From the NCBI GenBank assembly GCA_024673055.1, contig GCA_024673055.1_4537.1: a stretch of DNA of 64,000 nt, one strand, 5' to 3'. Below are positions 15,945 to 22,965 of the stretch, piece by piece (position 1 is the stretch's first letter; the number at the start of each line of letters is the position of its first letter). The stretch comes from a phage. The notes beneath the pieces were generated by a model. That model was not told where the DNA came from and did no database searches. It saw only the letters and a program-made list of their open reading frames with translations. A program made the position numbers and the translations under genes.

Positions 15945-16601
15945 ATGAAGAAGGGTAAACGTAAAGTTACCGTTCTCACAGAGAGGGGAGAAATCCCCTT
16001 GATTGTGGATGTTGAACGTAGATTGTGGGAAGGTGGTGTTATCAATGGGAAAAGGGTTAATACATTCATAGACCCTTCCTATGCAGCTTGGAAAGGCATG
16101 TTTAATCGTGCATATCGTATGGAAAACATTAGACCAGGTTATAAAGATGTTACTGTGTGTGATGCTTGGTTCACCTTTTCAAACTTTGATAACTGGTATC
16201 AAGAACACAATGTGGAAGGCTTTGTTTTAGATAAAGATCTTGTTCTTGAAGGAAATACTGTTTATTGTCCTGAATATTGTAGGTTTGTTCCTCCTTATAT
16301 AAATACACTCTTAAATTATGCTAAGAGGTATGAAAGAAAATACTTACTAGGAGCACATGTTAGGAAAGATGGTAAGATTTATGCCAAAGCTTCTGGGAGT
16401 AAAGGAAAGCATTTAGGCTACTTCGCTACAGAGGAAGAGGCACACTTCGCTTGGCTAAAAGATAAAGCTAAGTCAATCAGGGAAACAGCGGATCGTTACA
16501 AAGAGGAAGAACATTTTTATCCAGAGGTGTACAACACTCTTGTAAACAAGGCGGATTTCTATTGGCACCTGGCGGAAACAAAAACAGTATTTCGAGGCTA
16601 A
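15945..16601 (+). CDS. HNH/AP2-type homing endonuclease inserted between nrdA and nrdB
   Basis: Position identical to T4 mobE; AP2-like GYFATEEEAHFAW segment; LDKDL...GN...PEYCRFV HNH-like core. Confidence 0.5.
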   Translation: MKKGKRKVTVLTERGEIPLIVDVERRLWEGGVINGKRVNTFIDPSYAAWKGMFNRAYRMENIRPGYKDVTVCDAWFTFSNFDNWYQEHNVEGFVLDKDLVLEGNTVYCPEYCRFVPPYINTLLNYAKRYERKYLLGAHVRKDGKIYAKASGSKGKHLGYFATEEEAHFAWLKDKAKSIRETADRYKEEEHFYPEVYNTLVNKADFYWHLAETKTVFRG

Positions 16602-16605
16602 ATAT

Positions 16606-16629
16606 AAAGGGGCTTCGGCCCCCTTTTAT
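16606..16629 (+). terminator. intrinsic terminator (UUCG tetraloop)
   Basis: GGGGC-TTCG-GCCCC followed by TTTTATT. Confidence 0.65.
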
Positions 16630-16644
16630 TGAGGAGAATTTTAA

Positions 16645-17730
16645 ATGGCAGCAATTAATTTACACAATGAAGTTTACAAAACAGGAAAATATCCAGTATT
16701 TTTGGGGGAGCAATTAGGGATCTTTGATTCTGTTAACGTAACTTATCCAGAAATGCACAAACTCTACAAACTTCAAAAAGCACAAGATTGGGATGAAAAC
16801 GAAGTTAATCTGGATCAGACACGTAAAGATTTCGTAGCTTGTTCTAAAAACAACTATGATGTTATGATTAAAAACTTATCGTTCCAATGGGAAAATGATT
16901 CTCTTGCAAAATCAATCATCACTTTGTTCTCTCCATTCTTGAGTAACAATGAAGCCTGTGCTATGATGATGAAGCAGAGTGAAATGGAAGTTCTCCATGC
17001 GTTAACGTATTCTGAAATAATCCGTCAATGTACTCCAGATCCAATTGAAGTCATCAATCAGATTATGATTAATGATAAAATTTTCAATCGTATGGGTATC
17101 ATTGCTGATATCATGGGTCAGTTGGAAGAAGCTGGTCATAAGTATGCTCTAGGATTGATTGAAGCTAACGATGAACTTCGATTACTGATTCTTAAAGGGA
17201 TGGTAGCCCTGATTGGATTAGAAGGTATTCAGTTTATATCTTCCTTCTCTGCTACTTTTGCTATGGCAGAACAACAACTGTTTGTTGGGGCTTGTAAACT
17301 GATCCAGAAAATTATGCTAGATGAAATCTTGCATGTTAAGATGGATTATGCTGTAATTGATGCATTGATGCATGACCCAATTTGGCGTAAAATTTACGAA
17401 GATAATATTGAAGAGTTGACTTTGATCCTCGACACTGTTGTTGAACAAGAGGAACAGTGGTGTGACTACCTGTTTAGTGAAGGTCGTTTTATTGTAGGTC
17501 TTAACGCCGAATTGTCTAAACAGTGGGTTTATTTCAATGCTGCTCCTATTTATCGTCGATTGAAAATGAAAGCCAAGTTTAAAGCACCTAAACATAGTCC
17601 TTTAGCTTGGATGGAAAAATGGTTGAATCCTGATTTGATTCAGTCAGCAGCCCAAGAGATTCAGTTAACTAATTACAAATTGAATTCAGCTAACAAAGAT
17701 CTCTCTGATGATGAGGAGCTTGACTTCTAA
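16645..17730 (+). CDS. nrdB: ribonucleoside-diphosphate reductase small subunit
   Basis: 361 aa; acidic C-terminal tail (LSDDEELDF); immediately downstream of nrdA/homing endonuclease. Confidence 0.85.
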   Translation: MAAINLHNEVYKTGKYPVFLGEQLGIFDSVNVTYPEMHKLYKLQKAQDWDENEVNLDQTRKDFVACSKNNYDVMIKNLSFQWENDSLAKSIITLFSPFLSNNEACAMMMKQSEMEVLHALTYSEIIRQCTPDPIEVINQIMINDKIFNRMGIIADIMGQLEEAGHKYALGLIEANDELRLLILKGMVALIGLEGIQFISSFSATFAMAEQQLFVGACKLIQKIMLDEILHVKMDYAVIDALMHDPIWRKIYEDNIEELTLILDTVVEQEEQWCDYLFSEGRFIVGLNAELSKQWVYFNAAPIYRRLKMKAKFKAPKHSPLAWMEKWLNPDLIQSAAQEIQLTNYKLNSANKDLSDDEELDF

Positions 17731-20933: not shown

Positions 20934-21692
20934 ATGGGAAATAAAACCGCAGCTAAAACACAACGGCAGAAACTGGCTAATTCAGCAAAGATTGAAAGCC
21001 GTTATGCAGCAAAAGCGGTAGGTAATGACGATTACCGTTTAGATGAATTTATGCCTGAAGGGGACCAAAATAAGATTGTTCAAAGCATGATTTGGAATGA
21101 TCTGACTGTTGTAAATGCTCCGGCAGGGACTGGTAAAACCTCTGTTGCTTTATGGAAAGCTTTGCAGATGCTTCGTTCAGGAGACTTCCGTAAACTACTT
21201 TTTATCAAGAACCCTACTGAAGTCGGAGATGATCAGATTGGTTTCTTGTCGGGGGATAAAACAGATAAACTAGCAGCACACTATGAATCTACAAAACGTA
21301 TTTTCCAGCAATTCATGACAGCCAACAAATTGGAAAACGATATTGGATCAGGTAAGATCGAATTGAATATTCCTAACTATTTGTTAGGGGCTACCCTGGA
21401 TAATACAATCGTCATTATTGACGAAGCACAACTTATGTCAACAGAAACACTTAAACTTCTTATTGAACGTGCAGGTATTAATACGCATGTTATTGTATTA
21501 GGCGATGTTCGCCAGACATATGCAATTAAAAAACGTAGCAATGGTCTGCATCAAATTTTGGAACTTTTATATCCAGAAAATGAAGAAGGTGTTCGTGAGC
21601 CAATTGTAGATTTTATTGGATACGTTGAACTGACAACGGACGATAATAAACGTGGACGTTTGTCTAAACTGATTACTGAAGTGTTTATTTAA
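20934..21692 (+). CDS. phoH: PhoH-like ATPase
   Basis: Walker A APAGTGKTS, Walker B IIDEAQ; start ATG 20934 after AAGGAG (track start 20883 overlaps lysozyme and terminator). Confidence 0.75.
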   Translation: MGNKTAAKTQRQKLANSAKIESRYAAKAVGNDDYRLDEFMPEGDQNKIVQSMIWNDLTVVNAPAGTGKTSVALWKALQMLRSGDFRKLLFIKNPTEVGDDQIGFLSGDKTDKLAAHYESTKRIFQQFMTANKLENDIGSGKIELNIPNYLLGATLDNTIVIIDEAQLMSTETLKLLIERAGINTHVIVLGDVRQTYAIKKRSNGLHQILELLYPENEEGVREPIVDFIGYVELTTDDNKRGRLSKLITEVFI

Positions 21693-21727: not shown

Positions 21728-22228
21728 ATGGGTGTAGCAACAATAGCTATCGGAAGAAGCGGTATAGATGAGTGCTATCAAACGGGACTCGTAAAACCTA
21801 ACGAATTTCGTCAAATTTGTGTAAACCATATTGAAAAAGAGATTGCTCTTACTTTAGAGAATATGACCCTCCGAGATAAACTGGAAATGTTTAAATGTTG
21901 GTGTCTAGGAGAAGATTGGCTTTTAAACCATTTTCAAGAACTTTCTGATAGTAAAGAAAGCTTGTTTGATTGTATAATAGGAATAGCTGGCTCCGATCCT
22001 AGCCTTCTGCACATAACAGAAGAAGAGGCGAAGTTACTGTTCTTAAGTAATTTGTTTAATAAGAAAGCACTGCTTGTTCGTGATTGCAGTGATCTTCTTA
22101 ATAACCCGCTCGCAACGTCTGATCAAATTTTTGTTGACAAAGAGACACTACGTGCGATAGAATACATCTGCAAATATGTGAATGGCGGGAAAGCGGTTCT
22201 TAAAACATTAACAGAGGAGGAAGAATAG
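21728..22228 (+). CDS. hypothetical protein
   Basis: AAGGAGGA SD then ATG 21728. Confidence 0.5.
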   Translation: MGVATIAIGRSGIDECYQTGLVKPNEFRQICVNHIEKEIALTLENMTLRDKLEMFKCWCLGEDWLLNHFQELSDSKESLFDCIIGIAGSDPSLLHITEEEAKLLFLSNLFNKKALLVRDCSDLLNNPLATSDQIFVDKETLRAIEYICKYVNGGKAVLKTLTEEEE

Positions 22229-22920
22229 TGACGACAATTATTGCAACCAAAAATAAGATTTTGAGTGACGGTAAGGTAACTTTTGGTGGACGTGTAGATT
22301 CTATTAATTTCAAAAAGGTCCGAAAAATTGGAGATTACCTTGTAGGTGGTGCTGGTCGTCTGACCTCCGTGCTTTCTTTCTTTCAATGGTTTGAACAAAA
22401 TCTACAGTGCGAAGCAGCACGTGATGCTGTCCCTGGTTTGATGATTCACTCTGATCCAGATAAAGAAGATGAAGAGTTTATTGCACTTGTTGTTCATCCA
22501 GACGGACGTATTTTCCTGCACGAAGGTAACAACCCAACACGTGCATATCCGATTGATGAAGAATATTATGCAGTAGGGAGTGGGTCAGATTTTGCTTTAG
22601 CTGCTCTTGATGCAGGGGCAACACCAGAACAGGCTATGGAAGTAGCTAAAAAGCGAGATGCTTTTTCTGGTGGTGAAACATTTATTGAAGAACAAGACGA
22701 GATTATTGAATTAACAGATGATGATTTAGAAAACTTCTCCAAAGAAGAATTGATCAATCTTTTGAAATTCGGTAATCCCTACGGTGAAGAAGAACCTCGT
22801 AACGTGGCAGGTAACGAGGCGGATACTGAAGAAAAATCTGTTGCAGAAAACAACTTGACTTCTAAATCTGAAAATATTAATCTCGTAAATGTGGCGGATT
22901 TCGAAGGAACCGCTATTTAA
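22228..22920 (+). CDS. HslV/proteasome-beta-like Ntn peptidase with acidic C-terminal extension
   Basis: N-terminal M-TTIIATK (Thr1 nucleophile after Met removal), GGAGRL, YYAVGSGSDFALAALDAG matches HslV GSGG/active-site region. Confidence 0.55.
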   Translation: MTTIIATKNKILSDGKVTFGGRVDSINFKKVRKIGDYLVGGAGRLTSVLSFFQWFEQNLQCEAARDAVPGLMIHSDPDKEDEEFIALVVHPDGRIFLHEGNNPTRAYPIDEEYYAVGSGSDFALAALDAGATPEQAMEVAKKRDAFSGGETFIEEQDEIIELTDDDLENFSKEELINLLKFGNPYGEEEPRNVAGNEADTEEKSVAENNLTSKSENINLVNVADFEGTAI

Positions 22921-22925
22921 CAAAC

Positions 22926-22945
22926 TGCCCCTTCGGGGGCATTTC
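22926..22945 (+). terminator. intrinsic terminator
   Basis: GCCCC-TTCG-GGGGC followed by ATTTCTT. Confidence 0.5.
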
Positions 22946-22965
22946 TTAAACATAGGAGATTAATA

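Follow-up and report, generated by a model that had tools for sequence, protein, structure and literature searches.

A predicted proteasome-family peptidase of the phage PPH clade with a C-terminal extension, encoded near a PhoH-like ATPase gene in a phAPEC8-like phage

Virus-encoded proteasome-type peptidases have been catalogued, and the central questions about them are what they target, whether they form rings and whether they need an ATPase. In the survey of Fuchs et al. 2021, the clade termed PPH consists of compact phage proteins of ~140 residues from Caudovirales and from prophage-derived regions of host genomes, with WP_042125023.1 as its representative in the authors' CLANS map; no co-occurring AAA+ partner and no informative gene context was found for the PPH homologs (PMC8665760). 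The peptidase described here is, like PPH, phage-borne, a group I proteasome-like protein and a relative of HslV and BPH; it likewise has no propeptide and, in our AF2 prediction, has a compact core that lacks H2 and S12/H5. In contrast to the ~140 residues of PPH, it is 230 residues long and therefore not compact as a whole, with a core of 155 residues followed by an extension of 75 residues whose two-helix motif and acidic disordered end are not described for PPH in PMC8665760. Whereas the gene context of PPH was uninformative to Fuchs et al., the tail-bearing members are consistently found beside a gene for PhoH. Shorter relatives of 128-160 aa, at 35-44% identity and E 1e-10 to 1e-14, are consistent with the PPH of ~140 residues described there. 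Judged by the described marks of that clade, some of them read from a predicted structure, the peptidase probably belongs to PPH.

Three other described systems resemble it in part. RPC (Fuchs et al. 2021) also combines a PPH-like core without H2 with a C-terminal extension of unknown fold, but is listed for Proteobacteria only, whereas the family described here is phage-borne (PMC8665760). HslV (ClpQ) shares the (M)TTI N-terminus, the Thr1/Asp17/Lys33/GSG active site and the overall fold; the phage protein differs from it by a 4-residue deletion in the first hairpin, the predicted lack of H2, a pore cluster that is acidic where that of HslV is basic, the lack of an hslU partner gene, the additional C-terminal extension and scores far under the HslV equivalog cut-offs. 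BPH (PDB 5ovs/5ovt), which is the top Foldseek match to our model (E 1.2e-10), is a descendant of HslV that resembles the phage peptidase in its acidic pore-loop residues and in having no partner unfoldase (PMC5777263). However, BPH is bacterial, forms a tetradecamer, keeps H2, has a long acidic pore loop and no C-terminal extension, and is 21% identical to the phage protein. Proteasome-fold proteins encoded by phages are also represented, as BFVD matches, in the jumbo phages Ea35-70 and Special G of Erwinia and SPAsTU of Salmonella, but these phages encode an HslU-like ATPase as well, and none was found in this phage by the searches given below.

The window, by which we mean the whole stretch of 64,000 nucleotides that was analysed, comes from a Phapecoctavirus, a phAPEC8-like E. 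coli phage. The features of the locus are as follows.

20934..21692, + strand: gene for a PhoH-like P-loop ATPase (PF02562), which accompanies tail-bearing PPH genes more persistently than any other neighbour
21728..22228, + strand: upstream ORF (ORF167), 166-167 aa, phrog_14834, annotated without a function; its stop overlaps the peptidase start
22134..22163, + strand: sigma-70-like promoter match TTGACA-18-TAGAAT (11/12, a consensus match only), within the 3' end of the upstream ORF
22214..22220, + strand: Shine-Dalgarno sequence GAGGAGG, read from the sequence, 7 nt 5' of the peptidase GTG
22228..22920, + strand: complete CDS of the predicted proteasome-like N-terminal-threonine peptidase (long-form PPH), 230 aa plus stop
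22228..22692, + strand: predicted catalytic core, aa 1-155, alpha-beta-beta-alpha Ntn fold, from the AF2 model, Foldseek and conservation counts
22231..22233, + strand: codon of Thr2, which would be Thr1 and the predicted nucleophile after Met removal; T2 in 135/135 relatives
22711..22773, + strand: post-core two-helix motif, aa 162-182 (LTDDDLENFSKEELINLLKFG), from the AF2 helices and conservation
22774..22917, + strand: distal acidic disordered tail, aa 183-230, from low pLDDT and fast evolution
22926..22948, + strand: terminator-like hairpin TGCCCCTTCGGGGGCA (22926-22941), then TTTCTT, directly 3' of the peptidase stop

The ORF that the initial annotation had placed at 22228-22920, beginning M-TTIIA, is present as claimed in both the ORF listing and the raw sequence. 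It starts with GTG and comprises 230 codons plus the stop; its translation begins MTTIIATKNK, continues from M-TTIIA to GSGSDFALAALDAG and also contains AVGSGSDFALAALDAGATPEQA. Its GTG and the TAG that ends the upstream ORF run into each other (TAGTG at 22226-22230), an arrangement suggestive of translational coupling; the two ORFs were found together in 16 loci. A 'terminator' is annotated at the place equivalent to the 3' hairpin in Schickermooser and other records. The gene sits in the nucleotide-metabolism/early region, ~30 kb from the head genes. That it is a real gene and not a chance ORF is clear from its match to phrog_1040 (E 1.6e-63 across residues 1-229), its PF00227 score above the gathering threshold (25.6 bits, cut-off 22.4, E 1.1e-5), its 2334 relatives at E<=0.001 in a search of 1.84 billion cluster representatives, and the comparison with the 86%-identical gene of PsgM04F, in which the pN of the core (0.052) lies far below its pS (0.737), a contrast to be read qualitatively because most pairwise comparisons show saturation at synonymous sites. 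PADLOC returned no match to defence or anti-defence systems for the peptidase or for either neighbour.

As the product of a genome scan the gene is ordinary, since it is already annotated and the PPH family is already described. A relative is present in 234 phage records and also in 29 IMG/VR loci, and the same protein is labelled 'peptidase HslV family' in many records, including those of RefSeq. In a full-text literature search, phage PPH and HslV-like proteins turned up in annotations and in PMC8665760 but in no functional study. The family is restricted to phages, as far as can be told from a search of 185,579 genomes of bacteria and archaea with one peptide pattern; its sole return was a 425-bp contig with a 100%-identical sequence, which is probably phage contamination.

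The core is predicted to be a proteasome-fold N-terminal-threonine hydrolase. The AF2 model, which was built on a 26-sequence alignment, has a mean pLDDT of 82.7 and exceeds 90 over most of the core. It places H1 at residues 45-67, H3 at 120-128 and H4 at 133-143; H2 is absent, a feature that rests on this model, and residues 68-83 form an acidic loop instead. At E<=0.001 the model matches 894 PDB chains in Foldseek, and all 50 of the matches listed are BPH, HslV/ClpQ or the 20S proteasome, with E about 1e-10 for BPH, HslV and 20S beta. At the sequence level, PDB entries of HslV are matched down to E 4.9e-9. The initial annotation had proposed a phage-encoded proteasome/HslV-like N-terminal-nucleophile peptidase, with a structural comparison to HslV as the check; PF00227, the PDB matches and the predicted fold support that proposal, and the match of the model to HslV at E about 1e-10 indicates that an Ntn fold is present.

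The residues expected of the active site are T2, D14, K30, G40/G43, G117-S118-G119, D144 and S147, which together supply the proteasome-type set of N-terminal Thr, Asp17, Lys33, oxyanion Gly, Ser129 (GSG), Asp166 and Ser169. Conservation was counted in 135 relatives that are <=50% identical to one another: T2, K30 and G117 occur in all 135, G43 in 134, D14 in 133 (with E in the other two), G119 in 133, D144 in 122 and S118 in 117 (with T in a further 13). The threonine right behind the initiator Met, to which the initial annotation had drawn attention, is thus confirmed by the translation and by every one of these relatives, and the G-S-G motif is present at 117-119. There is no propeptide, and an M-T-[TVI] start is shared by 209 of the 233 relatives that were retrieved, as it is by E. 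coli hslV, (M)TTIV. Methionine aminopeptidase removes Met ahead of Thr. Judged from the sequences, the active site is intact and conserved, and purifying selection on the core is strong.

The extension (residues 156-230) contains 20 D/E against 5 K/R, for a net charge of -15. The description of it as an acidic tail of roughly 70 aa therefore stands as to charge and, at 75 aa, approximately as to length, but the tail is not simply acidic: a conserved two-helix motif precedes a disordered stretch. The family consensus of this motif is L-T-x-E-x-L-x-x-[LMF]-[ST]-K-E-E-L-[IL]-x-x-[LI]-F-G, its helices at 164-168 and 172-181 have block-mean pLDDT values of 84-89 in the AF2 model, and its pN/pS in the comparison with PsgM04F is intermediate. 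Of the 135 divergent representatives, 72 have an extension of 25 aa or more, and by eye most of these 72 show the two-helix motif; across these relatives the median net charge of the whole extension is -12.5, and it is negative in 62 of the 72. The distal tail has pLDDT values below 50 at residues 190-214, and its other 10-residue blocks average 40-48. Compared with PsgM04F, this region has nearly the same pN (0.20) as pS (0.20), for a dN/dS of about 1, and indels are frequent. Pfam recognised no domain in the tail of the peptidase nor in the longer tails of its relatives. The tail of one relative scored 21 bits against Rho_N, under the cut-off of 24.9, and a HeH/Rho_N-like reading of the two-helix motif may be taken as a weak lead.

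Our preferred reading, to which we give slightly better than an even chance, is that the protein is an active, HslU-independent N-terminal-threonine peptidase of the proteasome family, within the phage PPH clade. Its gene would be the last of a PhoH/ORF167/peptidase unit that is expressed from the early/middle nucleotide-metabolism region. Removal of Met1 by the host methionine aminopeptidase would turn the threonine into the nucleophile, which Asp14, Lys30 and the G-S-G loop would assist as they do in HslV and the 20S beta subunits. The peptidase most likely assembles by itself into a ring-shaped particle. Given that the apical face used by HslU is remodelled, it most likely also acts independently of host HslU. 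The C-terminal extension is predicted to point away from the core, with the conserved amphipathic two-helix motif probably being a docking or assembly element and the fast-evolving acidic disordered stretch behind it carrying variable extra domains in relatives. Its substrates during infection may be proteins or peptides of either the host or the phage. An intact active site is no guarantee of general proteolysis, since BPH, the nearest relative that lacks an unfoldase, displayed no activity in standard protease assays despite its reactive Thr1 (PMC5777263). HslV, a dodecamer of two hexameric rings that HslU activates, is a poor protease when alone, so a PPH acting by itself might likewise require an activator.

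The name HslV itself, used in the initial annotation, is not borne out: the peptidase scores 32.2 bits against a cut-off of 137 for the NCBIfam HslV equivalog NF003964 and 31.4 bits against 157.75 for TIGR03692, about a fifth of the cut-offs, and these scores together with the predicted lack of H2 and the acidic pore positions argue that it is not a true HslV. In HslV the pocket for the HslU C-tail is formed by F54/F57 of H1, Ala79/Lys80 of H2 and Q114 (PMC6429459); in our model the H2 part of this pocket is missing, and the H1 positions stay hydrophobic (L49/F52 for F54/F57). The basic pore cluster of HslV, R86/R89/K90, is needed for activity and is remodelled upon HslU binding (PMC5777263). 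These residues align to K79/E82/E83 of the phage protein, and most of the 135 relatives have D/E at positions 81-83. Canonical docking of HslU is thus disfavoured, because H2 is absent from the model and basic pore residues have given way to acidic ones. Both traits are marks of the PPH clade (PMC8665760).

The initial annotation had noted that no HslU ATPase is adjacent and had suggested that the host's HslU or ClpX might be hijacked. Its first point is correct, as no HslU-like gene is annotated near the peptidase, and tblastn with E. coli HslU at E<=10 found no match in the window or in positions 1-142,962 of Mt1B1_P17, a closely related genome whose last ~8 kb has its counterpart in the window. 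Its second point has the predicted structure against it as regards canonical docking. We consider it unlikely, although the best placed of the alternatives, that the phage peptidase docks on host HslU (ClpY), replaces or competes with HslV and redirects ATP-dependent degradation to targets useful to the phage. Such a mechanism would be in keeping with the finding that HslVs are the solved structures nearest to it in sequence (27% identity to E. coli HslV over 157 aa), with the presence of an HslU in E. coli and none found in the phage, and with the weakness of HslV-type peptidases that lack an activator (PMC6429459), and the hydrophobic H1 positions L49/F52 may offer a non-canonical contact. 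However, it has to contend with the missing H2 residues (PMC6429459), the K/E/E pore positions (PMC5777263), the low equivalog scores and the fact that HslU-like genes belong to different phages, namely the Erwinia and Salmonella jumbo phages. Since HslU is present, to our knowledge, in every known host of these phages, host distribution cannot discriminate between the models.

We also considered whether the phage brings its own unfoldase. The candidate was gp041 of Mt1B1_P17, a 379-aa classical AAA ATPase (PF00004, phrog_2376) with weak matches to Rix7, Cdc48 and VAT, whose counterpart lies outside the window. It was dropped for showing no specific co-occurrence with PPH: relatives of gp041 are found mostly in phages of Enterococcus, Bacillus, Staphylococcus and Lactococcus, which are absent among the PPH matches, and the Vibrio, Caulobacter and Rhizobium phages that carry PPH are not prominent among the gp041 matches.

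The most consistent neighbour is PhoH. The distance between a PhoH gene and an extension-bearing PPH is at most about 3.5 kb in 22 IMG/VR and GenBank loci and likewise in 8 further metagenomic loci (P0075, P0061, P0130, P0138, P0117, P0128, P0161 and P0100), in two of which it is directly adjacent and in one of which the order is swapped (PPH, small ORF, PhoH). The linkage holds for every tail-bearing relative whose flanks were readable, the genes between PhoH and PPH vary by lineage, and loci of the short-form PPH without the tail motif had no PhoH nearby. In phage VEcB, a single 1128-bp deletion takes parts of the PhoH, ORF167 and peptidase genes together. These observations would fit a module in which a tail-bearing PPH acts with the PhoH-like ATPase, and perhaps with ORF167, the tail helix docking or tethering the partner in a machine for ATP-dependent degradation or RNP remodelling. 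Against this, most PhoH-PPH loci share a larger syntenic block, NrdA-NrdB-glutaredoxin-lysozyme-PhoH-PPH, so PhoH and PPH may have stayed neighbours by descent within a single phage supergroup rather than through functional coupling. ATPases of the PhoH type resemble SF1 helicases and have links to RNA, and we know of no precedent for one serving as a protease partner. We regard the module as improbable, yet phoH is a very common phage gene, and its constant presence here makes for a concrete, testable hypothesis; if true, the module would be unrelated to HslUV and would give the widespread phage PhoH its first mechanistic partner.

About as doubtful as the PhoH module is a non-proteolytic or highly specific enzyme, which would have one specific target, from host or phage, and would subject it to a single cleavage, ligation or amidase reaction. 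The proteasome-like family does include connectase, a monomeric protein ligase (PMC8665760), and BPH combines a reactive Thr1 with the absence of general protease activity (PMC5777263); the remodelled apical face and the variation of C-terminal modules among relatives also speak for this reading. However, the full proteasome-type catalytic set is conserved, equivalents of Asp166 and Ser169 included, the AF2 model has no connectase-like S3/S4 insertion, and there is no pointer to a specific substrate.

A decoy, as also raised in the initial annotation, would be an inactive inhibitor: it would tie up a host unfoldase or protease, using the acidic tail as bait, and would catalyse nothing itself. 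The acidic, disordered nature of the tail and the lack of a partner ATPase gene beside the peptidase are compatible with this idea, but it conflicts with the invariance of the Thr and Lys, and near invariance of the Asp and G-S-G loop, in the 135 divergent relatives and with the purifying selection on the core, for which a decoy would have no need; moreover, the distal tail contains no conserved bait sequence, given its dN/dS of about 1 and its indels. We regard a decoy as very unlikely. Least probable of all is a head-maturation (prohead) protease, which we rejected: although none is annotated in the head module of Mt1B1_P17, where portal and capsid genes flank a 371-aa gene of no assigned function, ~30 kb separate the peptidase gene, in the nucleotide-metabolism/early region, from the head genes, the peptidase goes unmentioned in the phi92 virion structure paper, and the VEcB deletion, which removes the N-terminal 62 residues including Thr1 from a phage that is still viable and was propagated as an isolate, brings this reading close to being refuted.

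The occurrence of the gene in well-studied and easily grown E. coli phages of the phAPEC8- and phi92-like groups, which are used in phage-therapy collections, provides a practical entry point to these peptidases. VEcB and EmilieFrey, which are 99.9% identical across the compared flanks, form a natural control pair.

The open reading frame named in the initial annotation was recovered at its position, with a 230-aa product that begins MTTIIATKNK and contains the internal segment AVGSGSDFALAALDAGATPEQA. It is the last of three same-strand genes lying between the lysozyme gene and a terminator-like hairpin:

20934-21692, + strand: PhoH-like P-loop ATPase (PF02562)
Between PhoH and the peptidase, + strand: middle gene, 166 aa, phrog_14834, function not assigned; its stop overlaps the peptidase start
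22228..22920, + strand: peptidase, 230 aa, GTG start (ORF listing, raw sequence)

The GTG start overlaps the TAG stop of the upstream reading frame (TAGTG) and has a GAGGAGG ribosome-binding site 7 nt 5' of it, a sigma-70-like sequence 65 nt 5' of the start is a consensus match only, and directly 3' of the stop codon there is a G+C-rich hairpin followed by TTTCTT. The 166-aa protein gave a confident helical-bundle model, for which an informative structural match was not found. The peptidase lies among genes for nucleotide metabolism and replication (NrdAB, ligase, methyltransferases), about 30 kb from the head and tail genes.

The claim that this gene encodes a phage proteasome- or HslV-like peptidase held: the product scores 25.6 bits with Pfam PF00227 (Proteasome; gathering score 22.4), matches phrog_1040 over its whole length (E 1.6e-63), and has a threonine after the initiator methionine and a conserved active site. 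Among PDB sequences it matches HslVs best (T. maritima, E 4.9e-9; E. coli, about 5e-5). The AlphaFold2 (AF2) model, with a mean pLDDT of 82.7 and more than 90 over most of the core, has a proteasome-type strand order and helices H1 (45-67), H3 (120-128) and H4 (133-143); a Foldseek search of the PDB, the tool having been proposed for a comparison with HslV, matched this predicted fold to the Betaproteobacteria proteasome homolog (BPH), HslV and 20S beta subunits, grouped at E ~1e-10. In an alignment of 135 representatives with pairwise identity of at most 50%, T2, K30 and G117 are present in 135/135, G43 in 134, D14 in 133 (Glu in the other 2), G119 in 133, D144 in 122 and S118 in 117 (Thr in 13 more), and the S147 position is Ser or Thr in 123. 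The start M-T-[TVI], which E. coli HslV shares, was found in 209 of the 233 proteins retrieved by that stage, so there is no propeptide. The idea that the protein serves as a decoy conflicts with an active site that is invariant or nearly so across the 135 representatives, and is further contradicted by the comparison of the core with the 86%-identical gene of phage PsgM04F (pN 0.052, pS 0.737). On these comparisons, the peptidase is an enzyme maintained under selection and not a decayed copy.

The sequence and the model also indicate that the peptidase is not HslV. The NCBIfam HslV equivalog models gave 32.2 and 31.4 bits, far below their cut-offs of 137 and 157.75. In HslV, the pocket for the HslU C-terminal tail is formed by Phe54 and Phe57 of H1, Ala79 and Lys80 of H2, and Gln114 (PMC6429459). 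Helix H2 is absent from the AF2 model, in which residues 68-83 form a Pro/Gly/Asp-rich loop, and half of this pocket therefore has no counterpart in the peptidase. The basic pore cluster Arg86/Arg89/Lys90 of HslV, which is required for activity and is remodelled upon HslU binding (PMC5777263), aligns with Lys79/Glu82/Glu83 of the peptidase, and most of the 135 relatives have Asp or Glu at positions 81-83, which is reminiscent of the acidic pore loop of BPH, an HslV descendant that lacks an unfoldase. What HslU relies on in HslV is thus predicted to be missing or reversed in the peptidase, which argues against hijacking of host HslU by canonical docking. The accompanying statement that no HslU gene lies nearby was borne out: tblastn with E. 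coli HslU (E<=10) found no match in the window or in positions 1-142,962 of the related phage Mt1B1_P17, whose last ~8 kb have a counterpart in the window and were thus covered. HslU-like genes are present in other phage groups, chiefly Erwinia and Salmonella jumbo phages.

By the published description, the peptidase most likely belongs to a kind already described but uncharacterised, the phage proteasome homologs (PPH). Fuchs et al. 2021 reported PPH proteins of about 140 residues with no propeptide, no H2 and no identifiable AAA+ partner, and called them the first truly viral member of the family (PMC8665760). Short relatives of 128-160 aa (E 1e-10 to 1e-14) fit this description and have a core in common with the window protein. 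We found no functional study of any phage PPH member in the literature, and BPH, the nearest relative without an unfoldase, was inert in standard assays (PMC5777263). Dozens of genomes already carry an annotation for this gene; what our analysis adds is the anatomy of the tail, the constant PhoH neighbourhood and a natural deletion mutant.

The acidic C-terminal extension was confirmed: the last 75 residues contain 20 Asp/Glu and 5 Lys/Arg (net charge -15). Residues 162-182 (LTDDDLENFSKEELINLLKFG) form two short helices in the AF2 model (block-mean pLDDT 84-89). Past residue 183 the model becomes disordered (10-residue block means 40-48), and there the sequences differ widely and contain many indels. 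Of the 135 representatives, 72 have an extension of 25 residues or more, with a median net charge of -12.5 (negative in 62 of the 72), and most follow the same pattern of an acidic linker, the motif L-T-x-E-x-L-x-x-[LMF]-[ST]-K-E-E-L-[IL]-x-x-[LI]-F-G and a Glu-rich stretch. In longer relatives (up to 379 aa) the linker leads into extra C-terminal domains; neither these nor the two-helix motif matched anything in Pfam. The tail of one relative scored 21 bits with Rho_N, below the cut-off, so that an HeH-like reading of the motif is a lead only. Fuchs et al. noted that the C-termini of family members project away from the presumed ring and might serve in interactions (PMC8665760), and we infer that the two-helix motif may be a docking or assembly element and the remainder a flexible acidic spacer. 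The peptidase is most likely an HslU-independent threonine peptidase that would act, probably, as a ring, its tail recruiting a partner or a substrate. In the distal tail pN is about equal to pS against PsgM04F (0.20 vs 0.20; 43 codons); in the core pS is 0.74, and its fall towards the distal tail (window 22774-22917) may mark a recombination breakpoint within the gene.

Over the 3.5 kb around the peptidase, the window shares 99.5-99.8% identity with phAPEC8-like E. coli phages (Phapecoctavirus, Stephanstirmvirinae), and the RefSeq counterpart, 99.6% identical, is annotated "peptidase HslV family" (e.g. JR327_gp235 of Mt1B1_P17). Relatives were found by tblastn in 234 phage records, with identity of at least 99% in 64 and of 60-80% in 63, phi92-like phages among the latter; Aeromonas and Vibrio phage relatives are ~35% identical, and those of Caulobacter and Rhizobium phages ~32-35%, with the match confined to the first ~150 residues. 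When 185,579 bacterial and archaeal genomes were scanned with one peptide pattern, the single match was a 425-bp contig of Lysobacteraceae bacterium JHOS43. Its protein sequence shows 100% identity to residues 68-208 of the peptidase, and the contig most likely stems from phage DNA contaminating the assembly; the tail-bearing form therefore appears to be phage-borne. Five records labelled Campylobacter phage B15/A145/A150 (MG065650, MG065645, MG065639), Pseudomonas phage PsgM04F (OR584014) and Acinetobacter phage ABPW7 (OP562383) share 86-99.7% identity with E. coli Phapecoctavirus/Justusliebigvirus phages in the peptidase region or gp041; the hosts named may be incorrect, or these phages may infect an unexpectedly broad range.

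Mt1B1_P17 gp041 itself (16017-17156 of its comparison locus, minus strand, outside the window) is a 379-aa classical AAA ATPase (PF00004, phrog_2376) with weak similarity to Rix7, Cdc48 and VAT domains; it adjoins an endonuclease gene and is called 'FtsH-like protease' in some records. Relatives of this ATPase are frequent in phages of Enterococcus, Bacillus, Staphylococcus and Lactococcus, and it shows no specific co-occurrence with PPH. In Aeromonas phage 2L372D-type contigs (L022 5432-5983; also L023, L025, L026 and L027) a second proteasome-like gene lies directly 5' of the tail-bearing PPH. Its 183-aa product starts MTCIIAL, has GCG replacing GSG and matches BPH 5ovu (E 4e-5) and E. coli HslV (2e-5); the tandem arrangement suggests that the two products might form a hetero-oligomer. 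No counterpart of this gene exists in the window.

Fuchs et al. found no informative gene context for PPH (PMC8665760). When reading frames within 6 kb on either side of the peptidase were clustered for 31 loci, PhoH recurred more often than any other neighbour (22 loci, all carrying extension-bearing forms, one peptidase gene being cut by the contig end), with none to five genes between the two depending on lineage. PhoH also lies within 3 kb of the peptidase in eight more metagenomic loci, whose tail-bearing members are divergent (30-59% identity); it is directly adjacent in two, one of these intein-carrying, and downstream of the peptidase in one. A PhoH gene is found at most ~3.5 kb from every extension-bearing locus with readable flanks (PhoH-linked loci: window, L002, L008-L027, L039-L048), and none is nearby in the short-form loci examined. 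Most of the linked loci share the larger block NrdA-NrdB-glutaredoxin-lysozyme-PhoH-peptidase, so that the linkage may reflect a gene order inherited within one phage supergroup; a functional partnership between PhoH and the peptidase, for which the persistence of the pair would speak, seems to us improbable. In Vibrio phage 1.193.O a TnpB-like insertion lies between phoH and the PPH gene (L002 2767-3867), a 366-aa reading frame that by eye resembles a TnpB/OrfB-type transposon protein. It has a CxxC...CxxC motif towards its C-terminus, and its sole annotation is 'coil containing protein'. The PhoH gene beside a divergent PPH in two loci (L041 4084-5946 and L042 1165-3027; 620-aa product) contains an intein with a LAGLIDADG homing endonuclease, and the NrdA genes of L040 and L045 are intein-bearing.

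Phage VEcB carries one 267-aa coding sequence that fuses the start of PhoH to peptidase residues 63-221 (NC_052663.1 21495-22298; L037 2165-2968). In 54 other records of the 56 that matched, the alignment was in two pieces spanning ~2942 bp against 1814 bp in VEcB, and the region is intact in EmilieFrey, whose compared flanks show 99.9% identity to those of VEcB. The 1128-bp deletion took out the 3' part of phoH together with the middle gene and the N-terminus of the peptidase, Thr1 included, which makes VEcB a natural triple knockout. Since VEcB was isolated and propagated despite this loss, the module of PhoH, middle gene and peptidase is dispensable for laboratory growth, and a role of the peptidase in head maturation is all but ruled out because the deletion is tolerated.
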